A DNA stretch of 64,000 bases, from NCBI GenBank assembly GCA_964606085.1, contig CAZSFD010000011.1, positions 17,763 through 81,762 on the forward strand. Direction: 5' to 3'. The first letter of the stretch is position 1; each line of letters begins with the position of its first letter. Source of the stretch: an uncultured Anaerolineaceae bacterium (GTDB lineage Bacteria; Chloroflexota; Anaerolineae; Anaerolineales; UBA4823). The translations under genes were made by a program, and so were the position numbers. Positions 9,175-52,079 of this stretch are shown piece by piece. The notes under the pieces are model-generated. The model worked only from the letters and a program-made list of their open reading frames with translations, had not been told where the DNA came from and searched no databases.

Positions 9175-9175
9175 A

Positions 9176-20489: not shown

Positions 20490-22040
20490 ATGCTGACCAT
20501 TCATAACGCTCGTATCTACACCTTTGACCCTGCCTGCCCCATCGCCACCACGATCACCCTTCATGGTGGGCGGGTTGTTGCGCTCAACCGGCCTGCTGCC
20601 GATGGCGAACACCGCGATTCTGGCGGCAAGATCATCCTGCCCGGCCTGACCGACGCCCACTTTCACCTCGAACATTACGCCCTCGGTCTGCAAAAGGTGA
20701 ACTGCGAGACAAGCACCCTCGATGAATGTCTGCGCGGCGTGTCCGACCGTGCCGCCATTACCCCGCCCGGCGAGTGGATTCTCGGCCACGGCTGGAATCA
20801 GAACAACTGGGGTGGCGCTTTCCCCACTGCCGCCCAACTCGATGCCGTTGCCTCGCACCACCCGGTTTACCTGACCGCCAAATCGCTGCATGCCGGTTGG
20901 GCCAACAGCGCTGCCCTCAGGCTGGCCGGCATCACCGACCGTACGCCCGACCCCGCCGATGGGCAGATCGGGCGCAGCGCCGATGGCAGGCCAAACGGGA
21001 TGCTCTTCGAGAGCGCCATGCAGTTGGTGAACGCGGCCATCCCCGCGCCCTCGGAGGAGCAGGTGGCCGAGGCCATTCGGGCGGCCTTGCCCACGCTGTG
21101 GCAGGTGGGTCTCACCGGCGTCCACGATTTCGACCGTGCGCGCTGCTTTGCCGCTTTGCAGCGCTTACATGCGCATAGCCAGTTGAAGCTGCGCGTGGTC
21201 AAGAGCATTCCACTGGACGATTTGCCGCACGCCGCGGCCCTGGGGCTGCGTTCGGGCTTTGGCGATGACTGGCTGCGCCTGGGGGCGGTGAAGGTCTTTG
21301 CTGATGGGGCCTTGGGGCCGCGCACGGCGGCCATGCTGCAACCCTACGAGGGCGAACCCGATAACCGCGGCATGTTGTTCCTCGATGCCGAAGAGCTTTT
21401 CGAGCGGGGTAAGTTGGCCGTTGCCAGCGGTTTCCCCCTGGCCGTCCATGCCATTGGCGACCGTGCCAACCACGAGGTGTTGAACGCCTTCGAGCAGCTT
21501 CGCCCGCTTTCTGGCAATTTGCGCCACCGTATCGAACACGTCCAATTGATCCATCCCGATGATGCGGCGCGCCTGGCGCAACTGGGCGTGATCGCCTCGA
21601 TGCAGCCGATCCACGCCACCTCCGATATGGCGATGGCCGACCGGCACTGGGGCGCACGCGTGGCTCTTGCGTATGCCTGGAAGACCCAACTTGACGCCGG
21701 GGCGGTGCTGGCCTTCGGCTCAGATGCGCCGGTGGAAGCGCCCAACCCGTGGTGGGGCATCTATGCCGCGGTCACGCGCCGCCGTCACGATGGCGCGCCC
21801 GGCCCAGAAGGGTGGATTCCGCAGCAGCGCCTGGCCGTGGCAGATGCTATTCGTGGGTTTACCACGGGTGCGGCGTTTGCGGCGGGTCTGGATGGCCGCC
21901 ACGGCCAGTTATCTCCCGCTTCTCTGGCCGATTTACTCGTCCTCGATGTCGATCCTTTTGCCTGCGATCTGGGTGTGCTTAAAGACATCCGCCCCCGGGC
22001 GACGATGATCGGGGGCGAATGGGTGGTGGATGACCTGTAG
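20490..22040 (+). CDS. Amidohydrolase-family metal-dependent hydrolase (YtcJ-like)
   Basis: GLTDAHFHLEH (HxH), AVHAIGD, HVQLI, GSDAPVE. Start at ATG 20490 (MLTIHNARIY). Confidence 0.8.
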   Translation: MLTIHNARIYTFDPACPIATTITLHGGRVVALNRPAADGEHRDSGGKIILPGLTDAHFHLEHYALGLQKVNCETSTLDECLRGVSDRAAITPPGEWILGHGWNQNNWGGAFPTAAQLDAVASHHPVYLTAKSLHAGWANSAALRLAGITDRTPDPADGQIGRSADGRPNGMLFESAMQLVNAAIPAPSEEQVAEAIRAALPTLWQVGLTGVHDFDRARCFAALQRLHAHSQLKLRVVKSIPLDDLPHAAALGLRSGFGDDWLRLGAVKVFADGALGPRTAAMLQPYEGEPDNRGMLFLDAEELFERGKLAVASGFPLAVHAIGDRANHEVLNAFEQLRPLSGNLRHRIEHVQLIHPDDAARLAQLGVIASMQPIHATSDMAMADRHWGARVALAYAWKTQLDAGAVLAFGSDAPVEAPNPWWGIYAAVTRRRHDGAPGPEGWIPQQRLAVADAIRGFTTGAAFAAGLDGRHGQLSPASLADLLVLDVDPFACDLGVLKDIRPRATMIGGEWVVDDL

Positions 22041-22048
22041 CTGGCGGG

Positions 22049-23746
22049 TTATGGGGTGTTTTCGACCTGTGTGTTTTGCAGGGGCAGGGTATCTTTCAGG
22101 TCGGCGTAGACGACCAGCCGTTTGAGATAGCGCTTGAATTCGTCGTTCCAGTCGGTGCAGGTGATCAGGCTGATTTGGGGGTTTGTGGTGGGGTGGGTCA
22201 CGGCTAAATCGCCTTCTTCAACGACAACTTGTTCGCGTACGGTGTAGGTGTACAGGTTTTCTGCAGTGTAGACCTGGATGACATCGCCGGTTTTGAGTTG
22301 GTCGAGATAGCGGAAGGGGCCGTTTTCGCCGACCAGGGTGACATGCCCGGCCAGCGCTGTGTTGCTGCCCAACCCCGGCCAGGAGGTATTGCCCAGCCAG
22401 GCGATCTCCTGTTTCAGGCCGGCGATCATCCAGCTTTCGCCGTCGAAAGGCACGTATTTGACGATAGTATCCACGTTTAGGGCGGGAATGGCCAGACGGG
22501 TGACGGGGCTGGTATCGAGGACGATGCCGGGTTCTGTTTCGGGCAGGGCGGTGGGGGAGGGGATGGGAAAATCGGGCAGTGCGCTGATTTCGGTGGGGGC
22601 AGTGAAGATGTACCCGGTGGTGTCTTCGGTGGGGAAGATGGGGGCGATGGCATAGCCGGCCATTTTTTCGGCGAGGTGGGTTGGGGCAATGGCGATGGGG
22701 AGGCGCGCCTCGGGCGAGCGCCAGAACCACCCACTGCCGGCCGCACCAACGACTGCCCCGGCGAGCAGTAAGGCGACTCCGGCAAGAAGGTAGCGGCCAA
22801 TTTGGCTTTGTTCTTGTTGGCGCGCCCACAGGGCATACCAGATGGTGAAGAAGCCGGCCAGCGCCGCCGCGCCTGCCAGGAAGAGCAGCGACCAGTCTAT
22901 GGGGTGGGTGGGATTTTCAAGCGGTTGGAGGCCGGTGCCAGGCAGCCCAGAGACGACGACGCGGTAGTTGGCGGTGGCGGTGCGGGTGTTGTTGGGGGCG
23001 TAGGTAAGGCTGATGCTGTTAACCAGGTTGACGGTTGCGTTGGCGGTGCTGTTGACGCTGGTTTCGATGGTGACGGTGACAATTTTACTCGGCAAGATTT
23101 CGCCGATCAGCACTGTTACGGCATGGTTCTGGCGGTTGATTGTTCCCTGGGTTGTTTTGGTGTTGCTGGTGATATCTATGGTGGTGGGGAAGGAATCGGT
23201 CAGGATGACATCTTGTGCGGGGGCCAGGCCGTTATTGGTGATTTTGACGATGAAGGTGATCTTTTGCCCGACGCGCGCTTCTGAGGGGTTGACGGTGATG
23301 GCGATGGTGGGGTTGGGGGTGATTGTTCCGGTGGCGGTGGGGGTGGGAGGGGTGCCGGTGGTTGTGCGGGTGGCCGTGGGTGTGGGTGTGGCGGTATCGG
23401 GTATTTGTTTGAAGATGAGCGGTAAGAATTTTCGAATGGCTGTGGCCGTGTGTGTGGGCGTTGCCGTGGGGGTGGCGGTCGTTGTGGCCGTCTGGGTGGC
23501 TGTGCCTGTTTCGGTGGGGGTGCTGGTAGATGTGGCCGTTCCGGTGGTGGTACCCGTGGATGTGGCGGTTTCGGTGGCCGTTGCCGTCGGCGTGCTGGTT
23601 TCGGTGGGGGTGGGGGTATCTGTGGCTGGTTCGGGTTGGCTGACGGCGCTGAATTGGGGGATGGCCGCGGCTGCGAACCAAAGCGCCAGGCCGAAGATCA
23701 CCACGAATAAAAAACGGGCAATGCGTTGATGATTAAGGGGAAGCAT
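22049..23746 (-). CDS. Sortase-substrate fusion: signal peptide, T/P-rich linker, DUF11-like domain, LPGTG + TM + basic tail, second TM, sortase catalytic domain
   Basis: LPGTG is encoded at 22931-22945 (CTG CCT GGC ACC GGC). It is followed by WSLLFLAGAAALAGFFTIWYALWA RQQEQ. The C-terminal domain has LAGH, SLITC (TLxTC-type Cys) and RLVV. Confidence 0.8.
   Translation of the reverse strand: MLPLNHQRIARFLFVVIFGLALWFAAAAIPQFSAVSQPEPATDTPTPTETSTPTATATETATSTGTTTGTATSTSTPTETGTATQTATTTATPTATPTHTATAIRKFLPLIFKQIPDTATPTPTATRTTTGTPPTPTATGTITPNPTIAITVNPSEARVGQKITFIVKITNNGLAPAQDVILTDSFPTTIDITSNTKTTQGTINRQNHAVTVLIGEILPSKIVTVTIETSVNSTANATVNLVNSISLTYAPNNTRTATANYRVVVSGLPGTGLQPLENPTHPIDWSLLFLAGAAALAGFFTIWYALWARQQEQSQIGRYLLAGVALLLAGAVVGAAGSGWFWRSPEARLPIAIAPTHLAEKMAGYAIAPIFPTEDTTGYIFTAPTEISALPDFPIPSPTALPETEPGIVLDTSPVTRLAIPALNVDTIVKYVPFDGESWMIAGLKQEIAWLGNTSWPGLGSNTALAGHVTLVGENGPFRYLDQLKTGDVIQVYTAENLYTYTVREQVVVEEGDLAVTHPTTNPQISLITCTDWNDEFKRYLKRLVVYADLKDTLPLQNTQVENTP
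23318..23626 (-). repeat. Thr/Pro/Ala low-complexity coding repeat (linker of the sortase-fusion protein)
   Basis: TDTPTPTETSTPTATATETATSTGTTTGTATSTSTPTETGTATQTATTTATPTATPTHTA...TPTPTATRTTTGTPPTPTATG. Confidence 0.8.
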
Positions 23747-23781
23747 GAAATTCTCCAGAAGGATGCGTTGGGCGTGCGAGC

Positions 23782-23787
23782 ATTATA
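23782..23787 (-). promoter_or_regulatory. Possible -10 element (TATAAT) for the sortase-fusion gene
   Basis: The minus-strand TATAAT lies ~36 nt upstream of ATG 23746, with SD GGAG between. No convincing -35. Confidence 0.25.
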
Positions 23788-23932
23788 CCGCGCTCATTGG
23801 GGGCGTTTTCCTGTCGGTTTGTAGCGCTGGTGATATACTGCCCACGGGGATAATCTGCACTTTTCCCCATCGCCCCACCCGGCTCACCTGGGCCCGACCA
23901 ATTGCCCCTGTACGTTGAAAGCGAGACCTGCC

Positions 23933-24286
23933 ATGACTCAACACACTGCCGTCTTTATCTTGGGTTTTACCCCGGAAGCCCTGAGCAGTAATCAGTTAGT
24001 TCAGATGATACGGGCGGCCGACACCGGCCTGAAAGTGAAATATCCCGCTTTCAGGCAGATTATGCGGCAGGCTGACGTCAGTCAGGCTGAGATCAACATT
24101 GCCAACCAATTGTTAGCGCCGCCCATGGATACCCTGCAAAACATGCAGGCAGCGTTAGGCGATTGGTTACAAATTGAAGAACTGCCCTTCCAACCCGTGC
24201 TTGGTGAAAACTTTTTTATCAGTGACTCGCGTAATGAACAGGGGCAAGGAAACTGCATGTTGTTTTACATTCATCGCACCGCATAG
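23933..24286 (+). CDS. Hypothetical protein
   Basis: ORF with ATG at 23933 (the track uses TTG 23915). It has no recognisable motif and lower GC than its surroundings. Confidence 0.4.
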   Translation: MTQHTAVFILGFTPEALSSNQLVQMIRAADTGLKVKYPAFRQIMRQADVSQAEINIANQLLAPPMDTLQNMQAALGDWLQIEELPFQPVLGENFFISDSRNEQGQGNCMLFYIHRTA

Positions 24287-25260: not shown

Positions 25261-25302
25261 CAACCTTCAACCCGCAACTTTCAACCTTCAACCTTCAAAC
25301 CT
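25261..25302 (+). repeat. Six tandem heptamers (CAACCTT family) in the leader of the DUF5107 gene
   Basis: CAACCTT CAACCCG CAACTTT CAACCTT CAACCTT CAAACCT, then TCCCCCCT ATG (25311). Confidence 0.85.
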
Positions 25303-25310
25303 TCCCCCCT

Positions 25311-28300
25311 ATGACCCCCACTCCCTACCCCTCCCCCGTCCACATCTGGCAAGAACTTGTCACCATCCCCACCTACCCCGTCCCCTCGCCCGACCCCAAC
25401 CCGATGTTCTTCGAGAAGCGCGTCAACCAGGGGGCCAGCGGGCGCATCTACCCCAACCCGCTCACCGACCATGTCAACCACGAGACGAAGGAAGACCGCG
25501 CCTACCAGGCCGTCTTCCTGGAAAACGAATACATCCAGATCATGGTCATGCCGCAGTTTGGCGGGCGCATTCACGCTGCCCTCGACAAAACCAACGGCTA
25601 CGACTTCGTCTATCGCCAAAACGTGGTCAAACCAGCATTGATTGGCCTGTTCGGCTCGTGGGTTTCTGGCGGCATGGAGTTCAACTGGCCGCTGCACCAC
25701 CGCCCATCCACCTTTATGCCGGTGGAATACACCATCGAGCATGGCGAAGATGGCTCGGCCACGGTCTGGCTCAGCGAACACGAGCCGATGAACCGCATGA
25801 AAGGCATGTTGGGCGTGTGCGTCTACCCCGGCAAAGCCTATTTCGAACTCAAAGTGCAGCTATACAACCGCACGCCGCTGCCGCAGCCCTTCCTGTGGTG
25901 GATCAACTGTGCTGTGCGTGTCAACGAGAATTATCAGATCATCTTCCCGCCCGATGTCGAGAGCGTCACCTTCCACTCACGCGCCGACATGGCCTCCTAC
26001 CCCATCGCTCGCCAGTTCTTCGCCGGCTGCGACTGGCGCGACGGTGTGGACATTTCCTTCCCCAACAACGTCGGCCCGGCCACCTCGTACTTCGCCAACC
26101 CGTCTGGCTATGATTTCTTCGGCGGGTTCGACCACGGCAAGCAGGGCGGCATCATCCATGTGGCCAACCACCACGTCTCGCCGGGCAAAAAATGCTTCAC
26201 CTGGGGCACCGGCGATTTCGGCACCGCCTGGCAAGGTTCGCTCACCGACGCCGACGGCCCTTACATCGAACTGATGGCCTCCAGCTACTCCGACAACCAA
26301 CCCGATTTTTCCTGGCTGCAGCCCTACGAAACCAAGCGCTTCAGCCACCTCTGGTACCCCATCCAGCAGATCGGCTCGGTCAAAAACGCCAACCGCCAAC
26401 TCGCCGTCAACCTCACCGACGACTTCGTCGGCGTCTGCGCCACCGAAATCATCCCCGAAGCCCGCATCCTCGTCACCGCCACCTCCCCCCACGGCGACGA
26501 AATCACCCTCTTCGACTGGCAAGGCGACCTCATCCCCGGCCAACCCCTCACCGCCCACCAGACCTTCGACCTTCGACCTGCAACCTTGCGCGTCCTCGAC
26601 TCCTCCGGCTCCGAGTTAATCTCCTACACCCCGCAGCCTCGCCGTGACGATCCCCTGCCTCCCACCGCCAAACCGCCCACGCTGCCGCACAAAATTGACA
26701 ACCTCGAAGAACTCTACCTCACCGGCCTGCACGTCGAGCAATATCTCCATTTCAGCCTCGACCCCGCCCCCTATTGGGAACGCGCCCTCACGCTCGATTC
26801 CGGCGACTCGCGCAGCAACACCGCCCTCGGACGCCTGAAACTGCGCCGCGGCGATTTTGCCGCCGCCGAAGCGCACTTCCGCGCCGCCATCGCCACCCTC
26901 ACGCGCTACAATTTCAACCCCTACGACGGCGAACCCTATTACCAGCTTGGCCTGGCGTTGGTTTACCAGGCGCGCTACGCCGAAGCCTACGACGCCTTCT
27001 ACAAGGGTATCTGGTCGTATGCCTGGCGCAGCGCTGGCTATTACGCCCTCGCCCAAATTGACGTGCGCCGCGGCGACTACGCCCGCGCTCTCGACCACAT
27101 CGAACGCGCTCTCGTCACCAACGCCCATCACAACCAGGCGCGCGCCCTCAAAGCCGCCGTGCTGCGCCGCATGGGGCGCGTCGAAGTGGCCCTGCAAACC
27201 GCCCGCGCCGCTCTGGCGCTCGACCCGCTCAACCTGTGGGCGCGCGCTGAGATGGTGCTGGCGTTGGATGAACTGGGTGATCCTGCCGATTTCCAGCAAT
27301 CTGAGTTAACCCGCCTGCTGCGCGGCAGCGCCCAAAACTACCTCGACCTGGCCCTCGATTACGGCAACAGCGCCCTCTACCCCGAAGCGTTGGATGTGCT
27401 GTTGAGCTTCCTCGAACTCGAAAACGCCAGCGAAGCTCCCCAGGCCGGGGCCAGTTATCCGATGATCCCCTACGCCCTCGGCTACTTCGCCACCCGCGTC
27501 GGCGACACGGCTTCGGCGCTCGAATGGTTCCGGCAGGCCGCCAGCCAACCACCCGATTGGTGCTTCCCGCACCGCCTCGAAGAGCAGATCATCCTTGAAG
27601 CCGCCCGCGCCGCCAACCCGTCGGATGGGCGCGCCGCCTATTACCTGGGCAACCTCTATTACGATAAGAAGCAGTACGAAAAAGCCATCGCTGCCTGGGA
27701 AACCGCCACGCACCTCGAACCGGGCTTCGCCACCGCCTGGCGCAACCTGAGCATCGCGCGCTACAACAAGCGCGGCGACAAAGATGGGGCCAAACTTGCT
27801 TACCAGCAGGCCCTCGTTGCCAACCCACACGACCCGCGCCAGATCATGGAGCACGACCAACTGGCCCGCCGCCTGGGGGCTGCCCCCGCCGACCGCATCT
27901 TCGCCTTCGAGCATCACCTGGCCGAAGTGGCCCAACGCGACGACCTCACCGTTGACCTGGCCGCTCTCTACAACCAGACCGGCCAGCCGCAAAAAGCGCT
28001 CGACCTGCTGCTCAATCACATTTTCCACCCCTGGGAAGGCGGCGAAGGCCAGGCGGCCACGCAGTATTCGCTGGCGCACCTGTTACTTGGCGAAGCGGCC
28101 ATCGGCACCAACCCGCACGCCGCCCTCGAACACTTCGCCGCCGCCCGCCAGCATCCCGCCAACCTGGGCGTGGGGCGCGCCATGCAGGGTGTCCATGCCG
28201 TGGTGGATTTCCACACCGCGCAAGCTTATGCCGCCCTCGGTCAGCCCGATGTTGCTGCTGAACACTACCGCAAGGTTGCCGATGACGAGGCTGCTGCTCC

Positions 28301-28706: not shown

Positions 28707-29705
28707 ATGCCCACCATCGAAGTTCGTCACCTCACCAAAACCTTCACCGCCAAGCAAAAGGCCGCCGGGCTGGGCGGCAGCCTGCGCTCGTTGTTCCGCC
28801 CGCAGATGCGCACGGTGGAAGCGGTGCGCGGCCTGTCGTTTGAGATGGAGCCGGGCGAACTGCTCGGCTTCATCGGGCCAAACGGGGCCGGCAAATCCAC
28901 CACGATCAAGATGCTGACGGGCATTTTGCATCCCACCAGCGGCGAGGCCAGCGTGTTGGGCTTCACCCCCTGGAAGCAGCGCCAGCAACTGGCCTACCAG
29001 ATCGGCACCGTCTTCGGGCAGCGCCCGCAACTGTGGTATCACCTGCCCGCCATAGATACCTTCCACCTGTTCGGCAAAATCTACGAACTCGCCGACGCCG
29101 AGACCAAAAAGCGCATCGCCTTCCTTTCTGAAGCCTTCGAGATTGAAGACCTGCTGCAAACCCCGGTGCGCAAGCTCTCGCTCGGACAGCGGATGCGCTG
29201 CGAAGTGGCCGCCTCGCTGCTGCACCGCCCCAGGCTGCTACTGCTCGACGAACCCTCCATCGGCCTGGATGTGGTCGCCAAGCAACACATCCGCGATACC
29301 ATCCGGCGCATGAACCAGGAGGAAGGCGTGGGTGTGTTGCTCACCTCGCACGACGCGGGCGACCTCGAGGCGTTGTGCAAGCGTGTCATCGTCATCAATC
29401 ACGGCCAGATTGTCTATCACGACAAGGTATCCAATCTCAAGCGCAATTACCTGACCTCGAAGGTGATTGACGTGCGCTACGCCGAACAAATTCCCGATGA
29501 CTTCAATATCGCAGGCACCGAAACGATCAAGGTTGCTAAAACGCACTACGCCGCCAAATTGCGCTTCGACACACGCACCACCGCCATCGCCGCCGTCATC
29601 AGCCGCCTGGCCGAGGCCGGTAACATGCTCGACGTGACCATCTCCGACCCGTCGTTGGAGGAAGTGATCCGTTCGATTTATCAGGAAGTGGCAGGGAGCA
29701 AGTAG
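28707..29705 (+). CDS. ABC transporter ATP-binding protein (ABC-2 type)
   Basis: GPNGAGKSTT, LSLGQRMR and LLLLDEPSIGLD. Start at ATG 28707 (MPTIEVRHL). Confidence 0.9.
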   Translation: MPTIEVRHLTKTFTAKQKAAGLGGSLRSLFRPQMRTVEAVRGLSFEMEPGELLGFIGPNGAGKSTTIKMLTGILHPTSGEASVLGFTPWKQRQQLAYQIGTVFGQRPQLWYHLPAIDTFHLFGKIYELADAETKKRIAFLSEAFEIEDLLQTPVRKLSLGQRMRCEVAASLLHRPRLLLLDEPSIGLDVVAKQHIRDTIRRMNQEEGVGVLLTSHDAGDLEALCKRVIVINHGQIVYHDKVSNLKRNYLTSKVIDVRYAEQIPDDFNIAGTETIKVAKTHYAAKLRFDTRTTAIAAVISRLAEAGNMLDVTISDPSLEEVIRSIYQEVAGSK

Positions 29706-29718
29706 CAGGGAGCAAGTT
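29691..29718 (+). repeat. 14-bp tandem duplication (GCAGGGAGCAAGTA / GCAGGGAGCAAGTT) spanning the ATPase stop codon
   Basis: G-rich words partly complementary to the downstream CCTGCC/CTTGCC heptamers. Confidence 0.75.
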
Positions 29719-29723
29719 TGCCT

Positions 29724-29793
29724 CCTGCCATCTGCTACCTGCCACTTGCCCCTTGCCCCCTGTCGCCTGCCATCTGCCACCTGCTACCTGCCC
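29724..29793 (+). repeat. Ten tandem heptamers (CCTGCCA family) ending 1 nt before the permease ATG
   Basis: CCTGCCA TCTGCTA CCTGCCA CTTGCCC CTTGCCC CCTGTCG CCTGCCA TCTGCCA CCTGCTA CCTGCCC C ATG. Confidence 0.9.
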
Positions 29794-29794
29794 C

Positions 29795-30577
29795 ATGAAA
29801 TACCTCGCCATCTTTCGCATCCAGCTTTCCAACCGCCTGGCGTACGTGGGTGATCTGATCACGGGCAGCCTGTCCATTTTGATTTTCCTGTGGGTGTTCA
29901 TCCAGTTGTGGGCAACCACGTACCGCGTGATGAATCAGGAAAATATCGGCGGGCTGACGCTGGCGAACACCCTGTGGTATCTGATGTTGACGGAGGCGAT
30001 CCAGTTGAGCAAACCGCGCCTGACCAAAGGCATTTCCGATGCCGTCAAAGATGGCTCGATTGCTTACCTGCTCAACAAGCCCTACAACTTCCTGCTATAC
30101 CAGCTGAGCGTGGCACTGGCCGATGGCGTCTCGCGTTTCGGGTTCAATCTGTTGACGGGCGGATTACTGCTGGTGCTGATGGTCAGCGCGCCGCCGAACC
30201 CCATGGGTTGGCCGCTCGTGCTGGTGGCGGTGTTTTTCGGTTGGGTGCTTGATTTTTGCATCCAGGCGCTGATCGGTCTGGCCGCCTTCGTCACCGAGGA
30301 CGTTACCGCCTTCGATTGGATTTACCAGAAGCTCGTTTTCATCCTGGGTGGAATGTTGATCCCGCTCGATTTTTCCCCCGATTGGCTGCGCAATATCTCG
30401 CTGGCGCTGCCCTTCGCCTACACCATGTATGGCCCGGCGCGGCTCTTTGTCGAACCAGACCTGCTGCGCTTCGTCACCTTGCTGGCCGGTCAAACCATCT
30501 GGATCATCGTGCTGGGCGGCCTGCTGGCATTGGCCTATCAGCGCGGGTTGAAGTGGTTGGTGGTGAACGGCGGGTGA
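29795..30577 (+). CDS. ABC-2 family transporter permease
   Basis: Six hydrophobic segments, MKYLAIFRIQLSNRLAYVGDL... typical of ABC-2 membrane proteins. It follows the ATPase. Confidence 0.7.
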   Translation: MKYLAIFRIQLSNRLAYVGDLITGSLSILIFLWVFIQLWATTYRVMNQENIGGLTLANTLWYLMLTEAIQLSKPRLTKGISDAVKDGSIAYLLNKPYNFLLYQLSVALADGVSRFGFNLLTGGLLLVLMVSAPPNPMGWPLVLVAVFFGWVLDFCIQALIGLAAFVTEDVTAFDWIYQKLVFILGGMLIPLDFSPDWLRNISLALPFAYTMYGPARLFVEPDLLRFVTLLAGQTIWIIVLGGLLALAYQRGLKWLVVNGG

Positions 30578-33872: not shown

Positions 33873-35051
33873 TTATTTTTCAGGCGCGCCTGATTTAATC
33901 CATTCAATGACACTTTGCAGTTCTTCATCGGTCAGTTGGCCGGGGTGGCTGCCGGCCTGTTGAATTTGCACCAGGATGCTGTTATCGGGGTCGCCAGGGA
34001 TGATGCCAGGGCCGCTGTTGCCTTCGGCCAGGGCATCCTGGTAGGTTGCCAGCGAATAGCCGCCAACCTTTGTCACGCCGTGGCAGGTGGAACAGCGGTT
34101 GCGGAACAGGCCCTCGTAGTTGCCCGCCCACGAGTTGGCTGAGACGCCCTCGCCGAGGGTGGGCGTGGGTGCAACTGTGATGGTGGGCCGCGGGCTGGGC
34201 GTGACCGGGGCAAATACCTGCGCCGTCTCGCCCTGCGGCACCGTGGTGATGGCGGTGCTTTCATAGCCGAGGAAGAAATAGCTGAAAATGCCAAAGCCGA
34301 TCACGATCACCGCGGCGATGGGGGCGTAGATCATCTGGCGCTTGCGCAGCACCGCCGCAGGGATGGCTTCCTTGTGACTGGCCTCGATTTCGGCCAGTTG
34401 CGCCGGGTGCTCGTCTTCCATCTCGTGGCGGGTCATCTGGCCGGTGAAGATGCTCTTGTTGAACATCTTGATGTGGACGTGGTAGAAGTGCCACAGGATG
34501 ATGGCTGCCACGGCCAGCACGGCCTCTGCTCCGTGGGCGGCTTTGGCCGCAGGGATGGCCTCGCCGGGCAGGAAGCGGGTGGACAGCACCGGGTTCCACA
34601 TCAGGAAGCCCGTCAGCGCCATCAACACCGTTCCCCACACCACCGCCAGGTATTCAGCCTTTTCGGCGTAGTTGAACTGGCCGTATTGGGCGTGCTCTTT
34701 GCGGATGCCAAGATAATAGGCGATGTCCTGAAAAACATGCTTGATGTCATCCAGCCAGGGCATCATCGTCCAACGGGCGCGCAGCACGATGATGCGGTAC
34801 AGCAATTCCAGCACATGATACAGGCTGACAATCAACATCACGATGGCAGCCCAGTGATGGATGACACGCGTCCCTTCGATGCCGCCGAACAGGCGCAGGA
34901 AGAACAGGCTGATGGGTGACTCGGCGAACTTCTGGATCAACCCGGTCAGGCCGAGCAGCGAGAACGAGACCAGGAACACGCCATGTTGGATGCGCTGGCT
35001 GAGGTCGAAGCGCTGGTAGGTTTGGGGCGAGGCGGCGTGATGCTCACTCAT
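33873..35051 (-). CDS. FdnI/HydC-type cytochrome b fused to an extra TM helix and a C-terminal monoheme c-type (Planctomycete-cytochrome-C-like) domain
   Basis: Start at ATG 35051 (MSEHHAASPQTYQRF...). There are four helices with conserved His (IQHG, IHHWAA, AAHGAE, WHFYHVH), a fifth TM (MIYAPIAAVIVIGFGIFSYFFLGY), a T/P linker, then NRCSTCHG...IIPGDPDNSILV. Confidence 0.8.
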   Translation of the reverse strand: MSEHHAASPQTYQRFDLSQRIQHGVFLVSFSLLGLTGLIQKFAESPISLFFLRLFGGIEGTRVIHHWAAIVMLIVSLYHVLELLYRIIVLRARWTMMPWLDDIKHVFQDIAYYLGIRKEHAQYGQFNYAEKAEYLAVVWGTVLMALTGFLMWNPVLSTRFLPGEAIPAAKAAHGAEAVLAVAAIILWHFYHVHIKMFNKSIFTGQMTRHEMEDEHPAQLAEIEASHKEAIPAAVLRKRQMIYAPIAAVIVIGFGIFSYFFLGYESTAITTVPQGETAQVFAPVTPSPRPTITVAPTPTLGEGVSANSWAGNYEGLFRNRCSTCHGVTKVGGYSLATYQDALAEGNSGPGIIPGDPDNSILVQIQQAGSHPGQLTDEELQSVIEWIKSGAPEK

Positions 35052-36450
35052 GGCGGGCCTCCTCGCCGAGTTGGGCGGGTTCGTCGGGTGGAACTGGGTC
35101 ATCGCTGAGGGGGCTGGGTTTTTCTGGCGGGGATGCCTCTGTTGGGATTTCTGCAGGCGGTGTAGGGTTTTCCCTGGCCGTGTCAGGCGGCATGGCAGCC
35201 TGATCGGGTTCGAGTGGCCCGGTTGCATCTGCTTCGGTGGGAATGGCGTCGGGTTCGGGTTGCGGGGCGGCAGGCTCTTCAGAGGCCGGGGCGTGCGGCT
35301 TGCGTGGCAGGCGGTTGATCACCCGGCGGCTGGCATCCAGCACTACCATCACCCCCATGCCGCCCAACACCAGCGGGATGAAGAATTTGTAGAACAGGTC
35401 TACATAATAGACGATGGGGTATTTTTCGGGCGAGGGGTAGTAGTGCGACATCCACGAAGCGGGGAAATCGGACGTGGCATCGGGGTGGCAGGTCTGGCAG
35501 CGCGCCAGCAGGTTTTCGCGCACTTGCAGGCCCTTCTGCGGGTCATCGGTGCGCAGGATTTCGTGGACGCCGTGGCAGTCGTAGCAGACGGGCTTATTGG
35601 TTTCAGCGTCAGGCGACTGCTTCTCGAAGATCATCACTGTCGTGCCGTGAAAATCGGCCACATAAGTATCGAGGACTTCGGTGGTCAGGCCGTACTTCGC
35701 CATGCGCGTGGAGTCGGTGTGGCAGTTGGCGCAAATCTGCGGCGATTGCAGGCGGTAGGCGGCGGTGGTGGGGTCGCCAATGTTGTGGACGCCGTGACAG
35801 TCAATGCAGGTGGGCACGTCCAGGTTGCCTTCGGTGAGCGCCGCGCCATGCACGCTGGCGGCATATTTCTCGTAAATGGCGCTGTGGCATTTGGCGCAGG
35901 TTTGCGGTATCCACAGGTGCGCTTCGGGCAAAATTTCATTTGTTTCGGGGTTGGTAAGGCGCTGCACGGCATGGGCGCTGTGGCAGTCAGTGCAGGCGGC
36001 GGCCTCACGCTTTCCGGCGGCCAGGGCCTGGGCGTGGACGCTGTCGGCGGCCTGGCTGGCCTCGCCGCTGTGGCAGAAGGCGCAGCTTTCGTTCAGCTTC
36101 AGAGTCACTTCGCGCCCATCCTGGGCGCTGAAGGCCGGGTGCGGGTACGCCCCCACGTCGCGGTGGCACTGCACGCAGGCGTAGCCTAACGCACCGTGGA
36201 CGGAATTGGTGTGTTCGAGCGGGTCTACGAACAGGTCGAGCGTGCTGCCATCGCCGAGCGGCATGGTCTGGCCAGGCTGGCCGTGGCAGCTCAGGCAGGT
36301 TTCGTCGCTAATCGAGAGTGGCGCGGGGGTCGGTTCGGCGGCCTGGGGCAGCGGTGCGGCACGAACAGGGATCGCCAGGATCAGCAGGCTGCTTGCCAGC
36401 AAGATCACGCCGGATAGGAGGGGGAAGAATTTGGGGATGGTGAGGTGCAT
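35044..36450 (-). CDS. Nonaheme c-type cytochrome with C-terminal TM anchor and Pro-rich tail
   Basis: Signal peptide and 9 CXXCH (CLSCH CVQCH CAFCH CTDCH CAKCH CIDCH CANCH CYDCH CQTCH). The TM is FIPLVLGGMGVMVVL. Confidence 0.9.
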   Translation of the reverse strand: MHLTIPKFFPLLSGVILLASSLLILAIPVRAAPLPQAAEPTPAPLSISDETCLSCHGQPGQTMPLGDGSTLDLFVDPLEHTNSVHGALGYACVQCHRDVGAYPHPAFSAQDGREVTLKLNESCAFCHSGEASQAADSVHAQALAAGKREAAACTDCHSAHAVQRLTNPETNEILPEAHLWIPQTCAKCHSAIYEKYAASVHGAALTEGNLDVPTCIDCHGVHNIGDPTTAAYRLQSPQICANCHTDSTRMAKYGLTTEVLDTYVADFHGTTVMIFEKQSPDAETNKPVCYDCHGVHEILRTDDPQKGLQVRENLLARCQTCHPDATSDFPASWMSHYYPSPEKYPIVYYVDLFYKFFIPLVLGGMGVMVVLDASRRVINRLPRKPHAPASEEPAAPQPEPDAIPTEADATGPLEPDQAAMPPDTARENPTPPAEIPTEASPPEKPSPLSDDPVPPDEPAQLGEEARHE

Positions 36451-36461
36451 ATTCGATTTCC

Positions 36462-37142
36462 CTACTCGCTTTTCTCGCCGCTCAGGCGTTCATATTCTTT
36501 GGCGTGGAACTGGCGCATCTCTGCTTCGCTCAACTTGCCGGTGAACATGCTCAAATTCAGGCGTTCAATGTGGACGTGGTAGATATGCCACACCATGATG
36601 AAGATGGTCGCCACGATGGCTTCGGTGCTGTGGGCCAATTTCGCCGCTGGCACAATCCCGCCGGGGAAAAGCTGCGTGAACTGCACCGGGAACCAGATAA
36701 TGAACCCCGAAATGACCATGATCCCGATGCCGAAGAACAGAAACCAATAGGTGATCTTCTGCTCGAAGTTGTAGCGGCCAAAGGCGGGGCGGTCTTTGCG
36801 CAGGAAGAGCAGGTACTTGAGCATCTGCCAGGCATCGCGCACGTCTTGCACCGTCGGCAGCATGTCGCCGGGCAGTTTGCGCCGCACCAACAGGATGATG
36901 ATCACGGCCAGGTGGTAGATCACTTCGAGCGTCAGCACGATGGCGGCGACGTGGTGGATATTGCGGATCAGTTCCACCTGTTCGGGCGTGGCGAGCAATT
37001 GCTGGCTCCAGGCGGCCTCACGGTATTTTTGCGGCAGGCCGGTCAGCAGCAGCACCACGAAGCTCAGGATCAGCAGGGCGTGTTCCCAGCGCTGCGCCAG
37101 CGAGAAGCGCCAGAAGGTGCGTTCTTGCGTAATGGTTTTCAT
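36462..37142 (-). CDS. FdnI/HydC-type (Ni/Fe-hydrogenase b-type) cytochrome b
   Basis: Start at ATG 37142 (MKTITQERTFWRF...), an ATGA overlap with the upstream stop. Four helices with His ligand candidates (RWEHA, IHHVAA, LAHSTE, WHIYHVH). Confidence 0.8.
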   Translation of the reverse strand: MKTITQERTFWRFSLAQRWEHALLILSFVVLLLTGLPQKYREAAWSQQLLATPEQVELIRNIHHVAAIVLTLEVIYHLAVIIILLVRRKLPGDMLPTVQDVRDAWQMLKYLLFLRKDRPAFGRYNFEQKITYWFLFFGIGIMVISGFIIWFPVQFTQLFPGGIVPAAKLAHSTEAIVATIFIMVWHIYHVHIERLNLSMFTGKLSEAEMRQFHAKEYERLSGEKSE

Positions 37143-38305
37143 GGCAGGTTCCTCCGCACGCGCCCGGCCGTGTTGCGGACGATTTGCAGCAGCACATAAA
37201 TGACCGAGGCCCACAGCACAACCGGCATGAACCAATCGTAGAACGATTTGACGTAAAACACGAACGGCGTGCGGGCCAGGCTGATCTCGTTGTGGCCTGT
37301 CCAGGCCGCGGTCCAGTTCGGGCCTGCGCCGGGGTGACACTCGGCGCAGGTGGCTTGCAGGTTGGCCGGGTTGACTTTCGAGGCCGGGTCGTCGGTCTGA
37401 CGGATGTCGTGGATGCCGTGGCAGTCGGTACACACGGCGCTGTCGTGCCAGATGGCCGGCCAGCGTGCCTTGTAGACGGAAACATCCACGCCATGCCAGG
37501 AGAGCTTGTAGATGTCGTAAACATCGGCTGGCAGGCCATATTGGCTCATCATGACTTCATCGGCGTGACAGTTGGCGCACATTTCGGGGGTCTGCACGCG
37601 GAATTGCTCGGTGCGTGGGTCTTGAATATCATGCACGCCGTGACAATCGGTGCAGACGGGCACATCGGGGTTGTCCTCGCCGATCAGGGCCGCACCATGA
37701 ATGCTCTGCTTGTAGGCATCCACGATCTCGCCGTGACATTGAGCGCACGTCTCCGAGATGTGGGCGCGCGGCTCGTTGGGCGGGCGCACGTCGTGTGCGC
37801 CGTGGCAATCGGTGCAGACCGGGGCTTCGGGGTGGCCGGAAGCGGCCATCTGGGTGTGGATGCTGTCCTGGGCCTTCTCGTAATTGTTGGAATGGCACTT
37901 CTGGCAGGTCTGGTAGTAACCGAGGGAGAGTTCGCGGCGGCTGGTGTAGGTCTGCGCCGGGTGCGGGTAGGTGGTGATGTTGTTGTGACACGCCTCGCAT
38001 TCGATTCCGAGCGAACTATGGATGGAATGCTCGATCTCGTCGGCTGAGATCACCAGCGAAAGCGTCTCGCCGCTGGGCAGGGCGATGTCTTTGACCTTAT
38101 CGGGGTTGCTGTGACAGCCCAGGCAGTATTTTTCGGTTTCCTGTGCGGCGGGGGCGGTCACATCGGCGGCGCGGGCGGGCGTGGAAATACCAAGCAAGAC
38201 CGCGATCACAAGGAAGGTAAGACCGACAATTTGTGGCGCAAATCTCAGATTTGCGCTACGTTTGGCGGCAGCTGGAAACCGCGCTTTGGAGGGGTTACTT
38301 GCCAT
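37139..38305 (-). CDS. Nonaheme c-type cytochrome with C-terminal TM anchor
   Basis: Start at ATG 38305 (MASNPSKARF..., signal anchor). 9 CXXCH (CLGCH CEACH CQKCH CTDCH CAQCH CTDCH CANCH CTDCH CAECH). Paralog of 35044-36450. Confidence 0.9.
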   Translation of the reverse strand: MASNPSKARFPAAAKRSANLRFAPQIVGLTFLVIAVLLGISTPARAADVTAPAAQETEKYCLGCHSNPDKVKDIALPSGETLSLVISADEIEHSIHSSLGIECEACHNNITTYPHPAQTYTSRRELSLGYYQTCQKCHSNNYEKAQDSIHTQMAASGHPEAPVCTDCHGAHDVRPPNEPRAHISETCAQCHGEIVDAYKQSIHGAALIGEDNPDVPVCTDCHGVHDIQDPRTEQFRVQTPEMCANCHADEVMMSQYGLPADVYDIYKLSWHGVDVSVYKARWPAIWHDSAVCTDCHGIHDIRQTDDPASKVNPANLQATCAECHPGAGPNWTAAWTGHNEISLARTPFVFYVKSFYDWFMPVVLWASVIYVLLQIVRNTAGRVRRNLP

Positions 38306-38447
38306 TCTTCTCTCCCGCGGGCGGTTCAGCCACCAGCCCCAGGCGGCGCAAAAGATACGAGATGCCGAACAAAATCCCCAACGGCACCGCGCAGCGCACC
38401 ACAAACAGCAACCCGACGAAAATTGGGTTGGGATCGGCGTGTTCCAT
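38295..38447 (-). CDS. Uncalled 50-aa single-TM peptide, translationally coupled to the nonaheme cytochrome gene
   Basis: GGAGATCAATACTT ATG at 38447. The product is MEHADPNPIFVGLLFVVRCAVPLGILFGISYLLRRLGLVAEPPAGEKNGK. Third codon positions are mostly G/C. The stop TAA (38297-38295) overlaps the ATG 38305 of the next gene. It is below the ORF-track size cut-off. Confidence 0.45.
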   Translation of the reverse strand: MEHADPNPIFVGLLFVVRCAVPLGILFGISYLLRRLGLVAEPPAGEKNGK

Positions 38448-38473
38448 AAGTATTGATCTCCATTTTGCCACAA

Positions 38474-38502
38474 ACTTCCGAAGTCTTTAAGACTTCGGAA
38501 GT
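38474..38502. repeat. 12-bp perfect hairpin 5 nt after the NrfD-like stop, same arm word as 12269-12315
   Basis: ACTTCCGAAGTC TTTAA GACTTCGGAAGT. Confidence 0.75.
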
Positions 38503-38506
38503 CTCA

Positions 38507-39739
38507 TCACTTCTCGCCATCGAACAATGGCAGCAGCTTGACGCCCAACGTCAGCAGCAGCAGCGCATAGCCGATGATCCCCACCGCCACGCCCCACTCC
38601 ACCAGCGACGGCCAGTATTCCCCGGCGGGCAACTGGTACAACGTCCCCGGCGAATAGGCCACCGGCACGAACAACCCGCTGACCGTGATGTTCCAGCGGT
38701 GGGTGATGATGCCGAGCATGCCCGAAATGCCGCCGATGACGAGGAAAAGCGGCGAACGGTTGAAGCGCGGCGTCAGAAACAGCACCGCCGGGACGATGAT
38801 GCCCAGGCCCACTTCGCCCACCCAAAAACTGAAATTGTAGGGCGTCTGCTGGTTCAAAATGAACAGCGACTCGCTCACCAGCGGCGTGCGGCCATAGTAG
38901 GCCACCGTGGCCAAATCCCAAAATTTGATGTAGCCGTAGGCCAAAAAGGCCAGCCCGCTGAATTTGGCAATCGTGCGCAGTACATCGTGCGGCACGCGGC
39001 GCTTGAGCGTGATCCATTCGACCACCAGGGCAATCGTCATCGTCAGCGCCGGGCCGGCCGCCACCGCCGACAGGATGAACATGATCGGCATCGAGGGCTT
39101 GAACCAGATCGGGCGCGACTTGACGATGCCGTAGGTGGCTCCGAGCGAAGATTGATGCAGCAGCGAAATGCCCAGCCCCAACACGGCCAGCGCCGGGGCC
39201 AGCTTGTGCAGCAGGTGAGCGGCTTTGCGGATGTAGTCAATGTAGCGCACCCGGTCGAAGATTTTGGCCTCGGCGATCACCGGCAAAAACTCCACCACCA
39301 TGATCACGAGATAAATGGTGATGCACCAGGTAATTTCCCACAGCACCGAGTGGACGTTCCAGAACGCCCACGGATGCCAGAAGCGGTCGGGGCGGCCAAT
39401 ATCCATCACCAGCGTCAGCAGCGCCGACGTGTAGCCGATGAAGCCCACCAGCACGGCCAGGCGCACAATGGATTGGAAGTGTTTCAAGCCAAAGATGTAG
39501 ACGATGGCCGAAAGCGTGAACGCGCCCGCCCCCAGGGCGATGGACGACAGATCAATGGTGATCCACAACCCCCAGGGGACGAGGTCGCTCATATTGGTGA
39601 TCCATAGCCCCTGCCAGAACACATCCACGGCGGCCACCAACCCGATGGCCAGGCACAACCCGATGAAGGCCAGCCATGCCAGCATGGCCGGGCTGAGACG
39701 CGGCAGCGTGAAACCTTTGCGCGGCGCCAGGGTGGTCAT
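38507..39739 (-). CDS. NrfD/PsrC-family polytopic quinone-interacting membrane subunit
   Basis: 410 aa with ~10 hydrophobic helices. The N-terminal pattern VPWGLWITIDLSSIALGAGAF is typical of the NrfD family. ATGA overlap with the NrfC-like gene. Confidence 0.85.
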   Translation of the reverse strand: MTTLAPRKGFTLPRLSPAMLAWLAFIGLCLAIGLVAAVDVFWQGLWITNMSDLVPWGLWITIDLSSIALGAGAFTLSAIVYIFGLKHFQSIVRLAVLVGFIGYTSALLTLVMDIGRPDRFWHPWAFWNVHSVLWEITWCITIYLVIMVVEFLPVIAEAKIFDRVRYIDYIRKAAHLLHKLAPALAVLGLGISLLHQSSLGATYGIVKSRPIWFKPSMPIMFILSAVAAGPALTMTIALVVEWITLKRRVPHDVLRTIAKFSGLAFLAYGYIKFWDLATVAYYGRTPLVSESLFILNQQTPYNFSFWVGEVGLGIIVPAVLFLTPRFNRSPLFLVIGGISGMLGIITHRWNITVSGLFVPVAYSPGTLYQLPAGEYWPSLVEWGVAVGIIGYALLLLTLGVKLLPLFDGEK

Positions 39740-40566
39740 AGGCCCTCCTTTGGCGGGATATAGTAGACGTTGGCCTCCGTCCCCAGGTCTTCGCGCAGGC
39801 GGATGGTGGCGTGGGCGCGGATGTACTCGGAAACCGGGCTTTGTTCGTCGTTCAGGTCGCCAAAGACGCGCGCCCCCACCGGGCAGACGTTGACGCAGGC
39901 GGGCGTGGCTTCGGCGTCTACGCCGGGCATCAGGCCGCTGCGCAGGCCGTCATCAATGCGGTGAATGCAGAAGGTACACTTTTCCACCACACCGCGCGGC
40001 CGGCGTTCGACCTCGGCGATGCCCCAGGTGGGGATGTAGGGATTTTCCTCGCTGCGTTCCTGCCAGTTGAAGCGGCGGGCGTCGTAGGGACAGGCCACCT
40101 GGCAGTAGCGGCAGCCGATACAGCGGTCGTAATTCATCACCACCAGCCCATCTTCGCGGTGGTAGGTAGCTTGCACGGGGCAGACCTCCACGCAGGGGGC
40201 GTTCTGGCAGTGCAGGCAGGGCCGGGTGAAGAAAAATTCGCGCCCGGTGGATGTTTTCTCGTTGACGATGATGTTCCAGGGTTCGCCAGAAAGGACATCG
40301 TTGGTAGCGCTGCACGCCCGCTGGCAGTAGCCGCAGCCGATACATTTATCCAGGTCAATTGCCATGCCCCAACGGAACGGGCCGTGGCCGTCGCCATGCC
40401 CGTCGCCGTTGATGGAAAGTTGCTCGCTCTTGAGTTGTCCGAACGGCGAGAGCGGCCCGGTGGTAACGACCTGCGCCAGCAGCACCGAACCCGCCGCGGC
40501 CACCCCCACTTTGAGAAAATCACGGCGGGTCAGATCGACGACGACTTTGGTCTTTTTCTTAGCCAT
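39736..40566 (-). CDS. Tat-exported 4x[4Fe-4S] ferredoxin subunit (NrfC/PsrB-like)
   Basis: Twin-arginine signal LTRRDFLKVGVAAAG. Cys clusters CIGCGYCQRAC, CLHCQNAPCVEVCP, CIGCRYCQVACP, CTFC...CVNVCP. Confidence 0.9.
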   Translation of the reverse strand: MAKKKTKVVVDLTRRDFLKVGVAAAGSVLLAQVVTTGPLSPFGQLKSEQLSINGDGHGDGHGPFRWGMAIDLDKCIGCGYCQRACSATNDVLSGEPWNIIVNEKTSTGREFFFTRPCLHCQNAPCVEVCPVQATYHREDGLVVMNYDRCIGCRYCQVACPYDARRFNWQERSEENPYIPTWGIAEVERRPRGVVEKCTFCIHRIDDGLRSGLMPGVDAEATPACVNVCPVGARVFGDLNDEQSPVSEYIRAHATIRLREDLGTEANVYYIPPKEGL

Positions 40567-41563: not shown

Positions 41564-41709
41564 ATTTCGACCTCTTCACATTTCAAACTGGTAGGTTTAC
41601 CCTATCGAACATTATTTTTATGGGAGATTCTTCCCATTCGATTGTAGGTGCGAATGGATGTCACTCACAGTTAGCAATGTCACGCCCCCTCTCGATAGAT
41701 GTAACCAAA

Positions 41710-41751
41710 ATGGATGCCACAGGCTTTTTTGCAAAAACCTGTGGCATCCAT
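41710..41751 (-). terminator. 14-bp perfect hairpin plus U-tract directly after the collagen-like cytochrome gene
   Basis: The mRNA sense reads ATGGATGCCACAGG TTTTTGCAAAAAAG CCTGTGGCATCCAT TTTGGTT, beginning 8 nt after stop 41760. Confidence 0.6.
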
Positions 41752-41759
41752 AATTCCTG

Positions 41760-42989: not shown

Positions 42990-43019
42990 GGGCATTCTCC
43001 TCGCACTCGTTGTGAGCGT

Positions 43020-52037: not shown

Positions 52038-52041
52038 AGTT

Positions 52042-52076: not shown

Positions 52077-52079
52077 AAA

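Follow-up and report, generated by a model that had tools for sequence, protein, structure and literature searches.

How is translation initiated at a gene whose start codon is preceded by a tandem array of pyrimidine-rich heptamers and not by a Shine-Dalgarno (SD) sequence? The question is raised by two arrays of CYTGCYN units in a 64,000-nt stretch of contig CAZSFD010000011.1 from an uncultured Anaerolineaceae bacterium of the phylum Chloroflexota (the whole stretch is hereafter the window, and its own coordinates are used throughout). One array precedes an ABC-2 permease gene and the other a DUF692 gene. Our analysis indicates that the two arrays are ordinary members of a set of 7-8-nt repeats, like the short tandemly repeated repetitive (STRR) sequences of cyanobacteria, which are gathered in short spacers of co-directional genes. 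These repeats show a strict polarity: the block on the ATG side is G-poor and C-rich as mRNA, and an inverted G-rich or purine block, if present, lies over or right after the upstream stop codon. The genes downstream of the arrays lack an SD. In folding predictions, paired blocks form a stable hairpin across the upstream stop, and single arrays give a leader with nearly no folding potential.

By direct reading, array 1 consists of the plus-strand units TTTGCCT CCTGCCA TCTGCTA CCTGCCA CTTGCCC CTTGCCC CCTGTCG CCTGCCA TCTGCCA CCTGCTA CCTGCCC C at 29717-29794, that is, (YYTGCYN)11 plus C, and fills the spacer up to the permease ATG (29795-29797) at a distance of 0 nt. The ten heptamers reported earlier from 29724 up to this ATG are thus confirmed, and the number becomes eleven with the unit-like TTTGCCT at 29717; Tandem Repeats Finder (TRF) gives period 7 and 10.6 copies for 29719-29792. 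The upstream gene is an ABC ATPase open reading frame (ORF) with an ABC_tran domain (28707-29705, +), and the downstream one is the permease gene (29795-30577, +), which encodes 260 amino acids (aa) with the Pfam domain ABC2_membrane_6 and has an ATG without SD. The repeats reach back into the ATPase gene as a G-rich purine block (29683-29716, +) of four to five inverted copies of the CYTGCYN family of array 1, which on the minus strand reads CTTGCTC CCTGCTA CTTGCTC CCTGCCA (heptamer pattern matches over 29683-29716). This block codes for the ATPase C-terminus (..EVAGSK) and holds the stop TAG at 29703-29705. A preliminary description of this DNA had noted here a G-rich 14-bp duplication partly complementary to the array and able to fold back on it. 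The duplication is real (TRF: 14-mer, 2.3 copies, 29686-29717) and can pair, and the complementarity had been understated: the block is an inverted one of the same family, 80% complementary over 30 nt to 29718-29747.

The G-rich block and the first four C-rich units are predicted to form an RNA hairpin at 29684-29750 (+) with about 27 bp and a loop at 29715-29718. Folded alone, 29680-29752 has a minimum free energy of -40.7 kcal/mol (z-score -4.79), and 0 of 200 shuffles were equally stable. From about 29751 onward the remaining 45 nt of array 1 up to the ATG are predicted unpaired. Because both arms are periodic, alternative registers exist, one of which touches the ATG (arms 29692-29714 and 29775-29797). 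Within 29700-29800 no terminator-like site and no U-tract was found, the hairpin leading into the C-rich array and not into a U-run, and the site does not have the form of an intrinsic terminator. No promoter for the permease was found in the ATPase-permease spacer. A split ribosome-binding site (RBS), in which a hairpin carries a 5' SD next to the ATG, was also considered and dropped, the purine arm being itself paired in the stem.

Array 2 lies on the minus strand at 52042-52076 and reads, from 52076 to 52042, CCTGCCC CTTGCCC CCTGCTA CCTGCCC CCTGCCC, followed by AACT and the ATG (52037-52035), so that its five units end 4 nt from the start codon of a DUF692 / MbnB_TglH_ChrH-family gene (51222-52037, -; 271 aa; no SD). 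The gap between the TGA (52082-52080) of the upstream YceG/MltG gene and this ATG is 42 nt, and the array begins 3 nt past the TGA; TRF reports 52042-52086 with period 7 and 5.0 copies. CCTGCCC also occurs within the last YceG/MltG codons (GCC TGC CCC TGA, 52091-52080), and array 2 thus effectively begins inside the 3' end of that gene, whose C-terminus N-x-C-P is conserved in orthologues. There is no partner block, and the leader is predicted to be unstructured. The unstructured C/U leader proposed previously fits array 2, and it describes array 1 only in part, the first 30 nt of array 1 being predicted to pair as the 3' side of a stable stem. On its G-strand, array 2 holds four tracts of at least three G (GGG, GGGGG, GGGGG and GGGG); array 1 has three such tracts, being made mostly of GG tracts.

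The occurrence of one family at two genes in the same gene-relative orientation, as first described, is correct and not random. When the 3-unit pattern CYTGCYNCYTGCYNCYTGCY was searched with at most 2 mismatches, all 15 matches fell at the two array sites, and shuffles expect 0.20. The statement that both arrays end with CCTGCTA CCTGCCC is true of array 1 and has to be amended for array 2, where one more CCTGCCC follows. The reported absence of an SD at both genes stands as well: no GGAG-type SD lies within 20 nt of the permease or the DUF692 ATG, and such a signal was seen by eye at about 20 of the 36 other called genes of the window. The same two ATGs appear in independent gene calls on metagenome contigs, and homologues have matching lengths (260-268 aa for the permease and about 269 aa for DUF692) with coverage of 98-100%.

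The two sites are not alone. The 64 kb of the window contain seven array loci, six of them intergenic or at gene ends. Four further loci have 7-8-nt arrays of different units; at three of them the C-rich strand is sense and the array adjoins an ATG, and the fourth lies just inside an ORF start. A (CAACCTT)6 array (25261-25304, +) begins 7 nt past the stop of a 121-aa ORF (TAA 25251-25253) and ends 6 nt before the ATG at 25311 of a DUF5107/TPR gene, which has no SD and a leader with a predicted folding energy of 0 kcal/mol. An 8-mer array (9175-9213, -), GTCACCTA GTCACCTA GTCACCCA CTCACCTG ATCACCT, has five GTCACCTA-type units and adjoins the chorismate synthase ATG (9174-9172) at a distance of 0 nt; its unit 2 holds the TAG (9199-9197) that terminates the upstream Ser/Thr kinase gene, and the leader is unstructured and without SD. 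A 16-mer repeated 2.4 times (7926-7967, -), composed of two 8-mers with the sense sequences CACCCACT and CACCCCAT, begins 3 nt past the ATG at 7970-7968 and is in frame with a shikimate kinase/3-dehydroquinate synthase (AroK-AroB) fusion, whose N-terminus it extends by 14 residues if no other start is in use; the SKI domain begins at residue 22. Directly 3' of the stop TGA (321-319) of a 1939-aa gene there is a small inverted pair (271-318, -) with the purine block GGCAAGTCGAAAGTCAAAGGTCAAAGGTCG, the loop GTGA and the pyrimidine block CTTTCGACCTTCGA, followed by a normal SD (GAGGA) and an ATG at 253-251; its fold is weak (-21.6 kcal/mol, z -1.8). Finally, a (GACCTTC)3.9 array lies within the DUF5107/TPR coding sequence (26561-26587, +), C-rich in sense, and shows that slippage of such units also occurs where a leader function is impossible.

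In all intergenic arrays of the window the mRNA next to the ATG is poor in G and rich in C. The distances to the ATG are 0, 4, 6 and 0 nt for four of them, none of which has an SD, and single-array leaders are predicted to be structure-free (0 and -4.6 kcal/mol). Neither the (CAACCTT)6 nor the GTCACCTA array has a G-tract of three or more. The right edge of the window is the contig end, and a leftward extension of 9.7 kb (L136) contained no array beyond the pair at 271-318. A scan of the whole window with Rfam 15 at the gathering score gave no match at the arrays, and no known structured RNA family is thus recognised there.

Regarding base composition in general, the sign of the GC skew in 2-kb bins tracks gene orientation, the sense strand usually having C>G by up to |0.28| (e.g. 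8001-10000, 22001-24000, 26001-28000, 34001-38000 and 52001-54000); the 1939-aa gene (319-6138, -) is an exception to the C-rich sense. A purine-loaded sense strand is the more commonly reported pattern. As to the units themselves, the last 8-mer before the chorismate synthase ATG (9175-9182, -) is GATCACCT, identical to what we take to be the conserved 16S rRNA 3'-end segment GAUCACCU, and other C-rich units contain CACCT or CCTCC. With these stretches the C-rich blocks look anti-SD-like and their partner blocks SD-like, a likeness which may be a simple consequence of purine/pyrimidine complementarity.

How stable are such arrays, and do they belong to the junctions or to the lineage? Within the closest material they do not vary: array 1 is base-identical in the window and in two other assemblies with the same proteins (L001 and L002), and array 2 in the window and in four others (L003-L006), the assemblies compared for unit number coming from four samples. 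Among more distant relatives the picture is quite different. In an alignment of 63 orthologous ATPase-permease junctions, most carry a GGAGG-type SD with stop and start nearly adjacent, and those bearing arrays have no SD. The expression that the heptamers stand in place of an SD is thus fitting as a description; no displacement took place in this sub-lineage, however, because the closest array-less relatives also lack an SD. One of these, a Chloroflexota metagenome-assembled genome (MAG) with an 85% identical permease (L127), has an ATGA overlap of the two genes with neither array nor SD, and another (L130, 82%) has a 60-nt non-repetitive spacer without SD.

Other relatives have arrays of entirely different units at this junction. 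L129 (91% aa identity) has a 66-nt spacer in which (AAGGTTG)n lies over the ATPase stop and (CAACCTT/CGACYTT)n then runs to the ATG, with a predicted hairpin of 36 bp (-46.9 kcal/mol, z -6.9). There is a GGACGGA/TCCGTCG pair in L165 (-51.1 kcal/mol, z -5.6), a GCGTATT/(CGCAATA)4 pair in L172 (z -3.0), a (TCTCTNN)n array ending 3-4 nt before the ATG in L190, and CAATTAA-type repeats in L169. In L165 (455-570) the ATPase frame crosses both hairpin arms (tail ..TTEDEGRRTEEKCPSSVVGRPSSS*), and its stop codon lies 2 nt short of the permease ATG; here the repeat pair is absorbed into the coding sequence. The synteny of YceG/MltG and DUF692 is likewise kept in L131, L132 and L133, with a purine/pyrimidine pair in L131 (76%; -29.3 kcal/mol, z -4.1), a degenerate 8-mer array (CAAACATT)5 before the ATG in L132 (74%) and a plain, non-repeat, C-rich leader without SD in L133 (69%). 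L131 has a second pair between RuvX and MltG (-48.5 kcal/mol, z -7.1), whose C-rich arm ends at an ATG matching the MltG N-terminus of the window. In addition, another Chloroflexota MAG (L125) has a pair of the CYTGCYN family, (TGGCAGG)4-loop-(CCTGCCA)4 (-48.4 kcal/mol, z -5.8), in the gap that separates another ABC ATPase gene from the gene of its membrane partner. A hand count over the window and the relatives gave 12 blocks no further than 17 nt from a start, and in all 12 the sense strand has C>G; at the upstream stop, blocks that hold it or come right after it are rich in G or in purines, apart from single C-rich arrays that fill the whole spacer. In short, arrays appear, vanish and swap their unit sequence among close relatives, and the architecture and polarity recur.

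At the wider level, a scan of the genome collection for four CYTGCYN units found at least 120 loci (L007-L126 among them in genome contigs), gene positions being taken from our own heuristic gene caller, which reproduces the JGI calls on the window. The matches listed include many Nostoc, Calothrix, Moorena, Caldora and other filamentous cyanobacteria, which makes the earlier comparison with STRR an apt one, and also many Chloroflexota (Anaerolineae, Caldilineaceae, Ardenticatenaceae, Chloroflexales and Thermomicrobiales) as well as Saprospiraceae, other Bacteroidota, Planctomycetota, Acidobacteriota, actinomycetes and others. Among the matches listed, co-directional gaps show no bias to the C-rich sense (19 C-rich versus 27), and of 127 arrays only about 4 are C-rich in sense and no more than 15 nt 5' of a start. 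The other end of the gene behaves differently: 32 of the 127 listed arrays are G-rich in sense and either contain the stop of a well-scored gene or have their first base at most about 10 nt away from it, against 1 of about 45 C-rich-sense arrays at a stop codon. The rule of an array before the start is therefore not general for the CYTGCYN family; a polarity rule exists, and the window conforms to it. In the matches listed the stop is often part of the first G-rich unit, e.g. cgg TAG CAAGTAGCAAG or TAA GGAGGCAGGAGGCAGG. The (AGGCAGG)n version has the SD core AGGAGG at each unit junction, and in L030 and L125 a G-rich array is directly followed by an inverted C-rich one.

To bring these observations together we tentatively favour, with rather less than even confidence, a composite explanation: slippage-born and polarity-filtered repeats would give an SD-less, G-poor leader, either structure-free or gated by a hairpin, that is translated by coupling or standby binding. 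The arrays would originate from replication slippage of a local heptamer, as suggested at site 2 by the CCTGCCC already present in the conserved last codons of MltG, and template switching may lengthen a small palindrome into inverted blocks. Because unit sequences are interchangeable, the effect would be generic, acting through composition and structure and not as a sequence-specific signal. A C-rich block should neither fold on itself nor offer an SD-like motif or an ATG, and would thereby leave the stretch immediately 5' of the start free of structure and of SD, as a zone for landing or scanning. The downstream cistron could then be translated independently of SD by ribosomes that have just terminated upstream (translational coupling or re-initiation) or, by another route, through standby, S1-assisted binding of the 30S subunit. 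At array 1, a ribosome arriving at the ATPase stop would melt the G-rich arm and free the whole C-rich arm, tying the permease to translation of the ATPase much as the ATGA overlap may do in the 85%-identical L127. S1-type or SD-independent initiation at the array leaders, one of the roles originally put forward, may be regarded as plausible. What the arrays are not is a phase-variation switch, nor are they essential, since close relatives do without them.

Several facts weigh against this composite explanation. In its most stable form the hairpin of array 1 stops 45 nt short of the ATG, so that the start codon itself could be gated only through the alternative registers; moreover, a stem of -40 kcal/mol could equally impede re-initiating or scanning ribosomes. 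Any benefit has to be small, as the arrays are missing in close relatives. Arrays also occur inside coding sequence (26561-26587 and 7926-7967), and the pair at 271-318 has a normal SD after it. At the same time, the polarity count of 12/12 is small, made by hand and partly non-independent, two junctions recurring in it, and the cross-phylum figures rest on a heuristic gene caller and on the matches listed from at least 120 loci. A bolder version of the composite explanation would take the paired blocks as a selected, convergent intercistronic device, in which a G-rich block over the upstream stop and a longer C-rich block reaching the downstream ATG make a sliding, register-tolerant hairpin that is opened only by the terminating ribosome and exposes an SD-free, structure-free runway for re-initiation; we consider it doubtful. 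If it were true, the device would represent general SD-independent coupling in Chloroflexota and possibly in other heptamer-rich bacteria, and would give STRR-type repeats a function.

The arrays might instead be neutral slippage debris with no effect on expression, the polarity reflecting what purifying selection removes. On this account G-rich repeats, SD-like or prone to G-quadruplex (G4) formation, would not be tolerated just before a start, pyrimidine-rich repeats would not be tolerated across a stop because they contain no stop triplets and add hydrophobic Pro/Leu/Cys tails, and the general C>G bias of the sense strand would contribute. We hold this possibility to be somewhat unlikely. 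The gain, loss and unit turnover among close relatives, the existence of intragenic arrays and the many unrelated units at one junction all agree with it, and so do the stop lying within the first G-rich unit (TAG-CAAG, TAG-CAGG) in many of the cross-phylum cases listed, the generally C>G sense strand of the window and the published view of heptamers as slippage products for which no function was found (PMC4692102). However, one junction has acquired inverted pairs repeatedly, in at least four lineages, and their arms are almost perfectly complementary (z -3 to -7) despite the fast turnover of units. Adding 60-110 nt and a stable stem to a once-overlapping junction is also unlikely to be neutral for expression in large populations, and the downstream genes still need SD-less translation from these leaders. 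Another view would place the function at the upstream gene, the repeats acting as an intercistronic stem-loop like the repetitive extragenic palindromic (REP) elements, which protects against 3'-exonucleases or terminates partially and thus sets the ATPase:permease ratio, with the C-rich tail as a by-product or processing site. The REP elements of the E. coli malE-malF spacer do stabilise the upstream message, strong hairpins here begin at or directly after stops, and the 32 of 127 listed arrays that begin at a stop in G-rich sense include convergent pairs without a downstream start. We nevertheless find this improbable: array 2, (CAACCTT)6 and the aroC array have no partner block or structure, the spacer has no U-tract or terminator-like site, and with no permease promoter in the spacer read-through is required. 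We also considered the C-rich block as a Rho-utilisation (rut) site, for which its C-rich, G-poor make-up and length of about 70 nt would be suitable; similar arrays abound in cyanobacteria, which to our knowledge lack Rho, and this speaks against the idea, though a rut role is conceivable in the present organism.

The remaining candidates give the heptamer itself a role. A binding-site array for a sequence-specific RNA- or DNA-binding protein (with a cold-shock domain, S1 or other) that recruits or blocks ribosomes would account for the regular 7-nt spacing immediately 5' of the ATG; such binding has been proposed for the TAACTGA repeats of Beggiatoaceae (PMC4679880), and reporter data in Nostoc hint at a heptamer-binding partner (bioRxiv 10.1101/2022.06.06.494920). 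The protein-binding array of the preliminary description is nonetheless highly improbable, as the window has at least four unrelated unit families and the ATPase-permease junction at least six across lineages, unrelated units thus standing at the same junction in relatives, and units are degenerate even within a single array; TAACTGA, by contrast, is one conserved unit genome-wide. Non-B DNA structure, i.e. a G-quadruplex on the G-rich (template) strand or an i-motif on the C-rich strand that modulates transcription through the junction, has in its favour the four tracts of at least three G on the G-rich strand of array 2 and the in vitro G4 and i-motif formation of GGGNATC-type heptamers, which follow the same positional rule (PMC4692102). 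We give it only a very slim chance: arrays of the same polarity made of CAACCTT, GTCACCTA, CGCAATA or TCTCTNN cannot form G4, and array 1 has mostly GG tracts. Tuning of expression by copy number, in which slippage in unit number adjusts or switches the downstream gene, is what upstream tandem heptamers do in Haemophilus. At this locus such a contingency function is scarcely credible, for none of the independent assemblies compared (two for array 1 and four for array 2, besides the window) differs in unit number or sequence, the units are interrupted and degenerate, and the genes are of housekeeping type; phase variation is rejected at the level of these assemblies. The comparison of unit number among assemblies, proposed earlier as a check, thus revealed no variation, and Rehm et al. 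likewise saw no contingency function in their heptamers (PMC4692102).

Several other features of the window and its relatives deserve a record. TATAAT-like boxes occur very near starts at 50370-50390 (-) and 23747-23790 (-), and GGGGTATAATGCGCCT-ATG precedes a 218-aa gene (49713-50369), which suggests leaderless or near-leaderless mRNAs in this organism. The sole Rfam hit of the window is a cyclic di-GMP-I riboswitch aptamer (46214-46296, +; RF01051, 52.9 bits, full length), about 70 nt 5' of a 1092-aa Peptidase_S8 gene (46366-49644). G-rich tandem repeats of 6-30 nt (GTGGGT-type, several TRF rows) at 23350-23617 lie inside a sortase/CLIPPER-domain gene (22049-23746, -) and presumably code for a repetitive Pro/Thr-rich linker. 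The region 33873-43043 (-) has a large multihaem cytochrome, NrfD, 4Fe-4S and cytochrome-b-type cluster followed by a two-component system, and looks like an extracellular or anaerobic electron-transfer module. In L127, a 31-nt unit is repeated 7.2 times head-to-tail without spacers and with 95% identity at 12745-12968, between AAA-family and sigma-54 activator genes.

The Chloroflexota provide a natural experiment on these questions, with the ATPase-permease and MltG-DUF692 junctions found in four states: overlap, plain spacer, single C-rich array and inverted pair with unrelated units. Polarity is the same across these states, and two ideas can be tested with reporters, namely that the leader supports SD-independent or coupled translation and that the stop-spanning hairpin serves as a coupling gate; the recurring stop-to-start hairpin architecture may merit experiments. 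Should the arrays be neutral, the data still show that simple repeats are strongly filtered for orientation where genes begin and end. This filter matters for gene-start prediction, since an ATG without SD may stand immediately 3' of a repeat and the ends of ORFs can take up repeats.

It remains to place the arrays among known repeats. Cyanobacteria have been known since about 1990 to contain tandem heptamers, and such repeats were later catalogued close to start and stop codons in Beggiatoaceae, Xanthomonas, Nostoc and Bacteroidetes. With the STRR sequences the window shares head-to-tail 7-nt units in at least three copies (TRF 10.6 and 5.0), many intergenic sites, several unit families per genome and the lack of an assigned function. 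The hosts are different, STRR being found in heterocystous cyanobacteria and the present arrays in Chloroflexota (close homologues are named Chloroflexota, Anaerolineales or Caldilineaceae), and the units CYTGCYN, CAACCTT and GTCACCTA are not canonical STRR sequences, the canonical STRR1-3 units being CCCCAGT, TTGGTCA and CAACAGT. Moreover, the definition of STRR includes neither a polarity towards start and stop codons nor paired-block hairpins, both of which are found here. The REP elements and bacterial interspersed mosaic elements (BIME) of enterobacteria consist of palindromic units, each about 35 nt long, which REP-associated tyrosine transposases (RAYT) mobilise. The likeness lies in repeated extragenic hairpin elements after stop codons inside operons and the difference in the tandem heptamers of the window, in which no REP unit or RAYT transposase was noticed.

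Closer in position are the TAACTGA repeats of Beggiatoaceae (MacGregor 2015, PMC4679880), which are mostly forward, with the largest class ending 1 nt before the start; only about 10% are accompanied by an SD, they cover the expected RBS position, and some overlap the end of the upstream ORF. They are also present in cyanobacteria and Bacteroidetes, and a role in translation was proposed for them, with S1, Csp or CsrA-like proteins suggested as binders. The arrays of the window are likewise forward, within a few nt of the start and without a canonical RBS. However, TAACTGA is one conserved, AT-rich unit genome-wide in 2-6 copies with only one inverted repeat, whereas the window has four C-rich unit families, none of them TAACTGA, and the present repeats reach 11-12 copies, often come as inverted pairs and change their unit from one close relative to the next. 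Rehm et al. (2015, PMC4692102) found the GGGAATC/GGGGAYT repeats of Xanthomonas and Nostoc for the most part in gaps between aligned ORFs. Up to 50 bp before an ORF the G-rich strand is the non-coding one, and at a stop codon, or overlapping it, it is the coding one. These repeats are transcribed, occupy the same junctions in related species with extensive variation in length and sequence, show no link to phase variation, and form G4 and i-motif structures in vitro (GGGNATC-type); the excess of heptamers was thought possibly to stem from polymerase slippage, and no function was found (PMC4692102). The same polarity is seen in the arrays of the window and in L125, L129, L131, L132, L165 and L172. 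The GGGNATC repeats are defined by GGG tracts and a four-unit preference related to G4; for most of the present arrays, in contrast, G4 formation is not expected, and their lengths do not cluster around four units. In Nostoc, deletion of heptamers alters a reporter with no mechanism given, and an unidentified binding partner is hinted at (bioRxiv 10.1101/2022.06.06.494920). Our literature searches found no description of such heptamer arrays in Chloroflexota. The arrays of the window thus belong to the known class of intergenic heptamers of the STRR, TAACTGA and GGGNATC type, and what is new is their occurrence in the phylum Chloroflexota.

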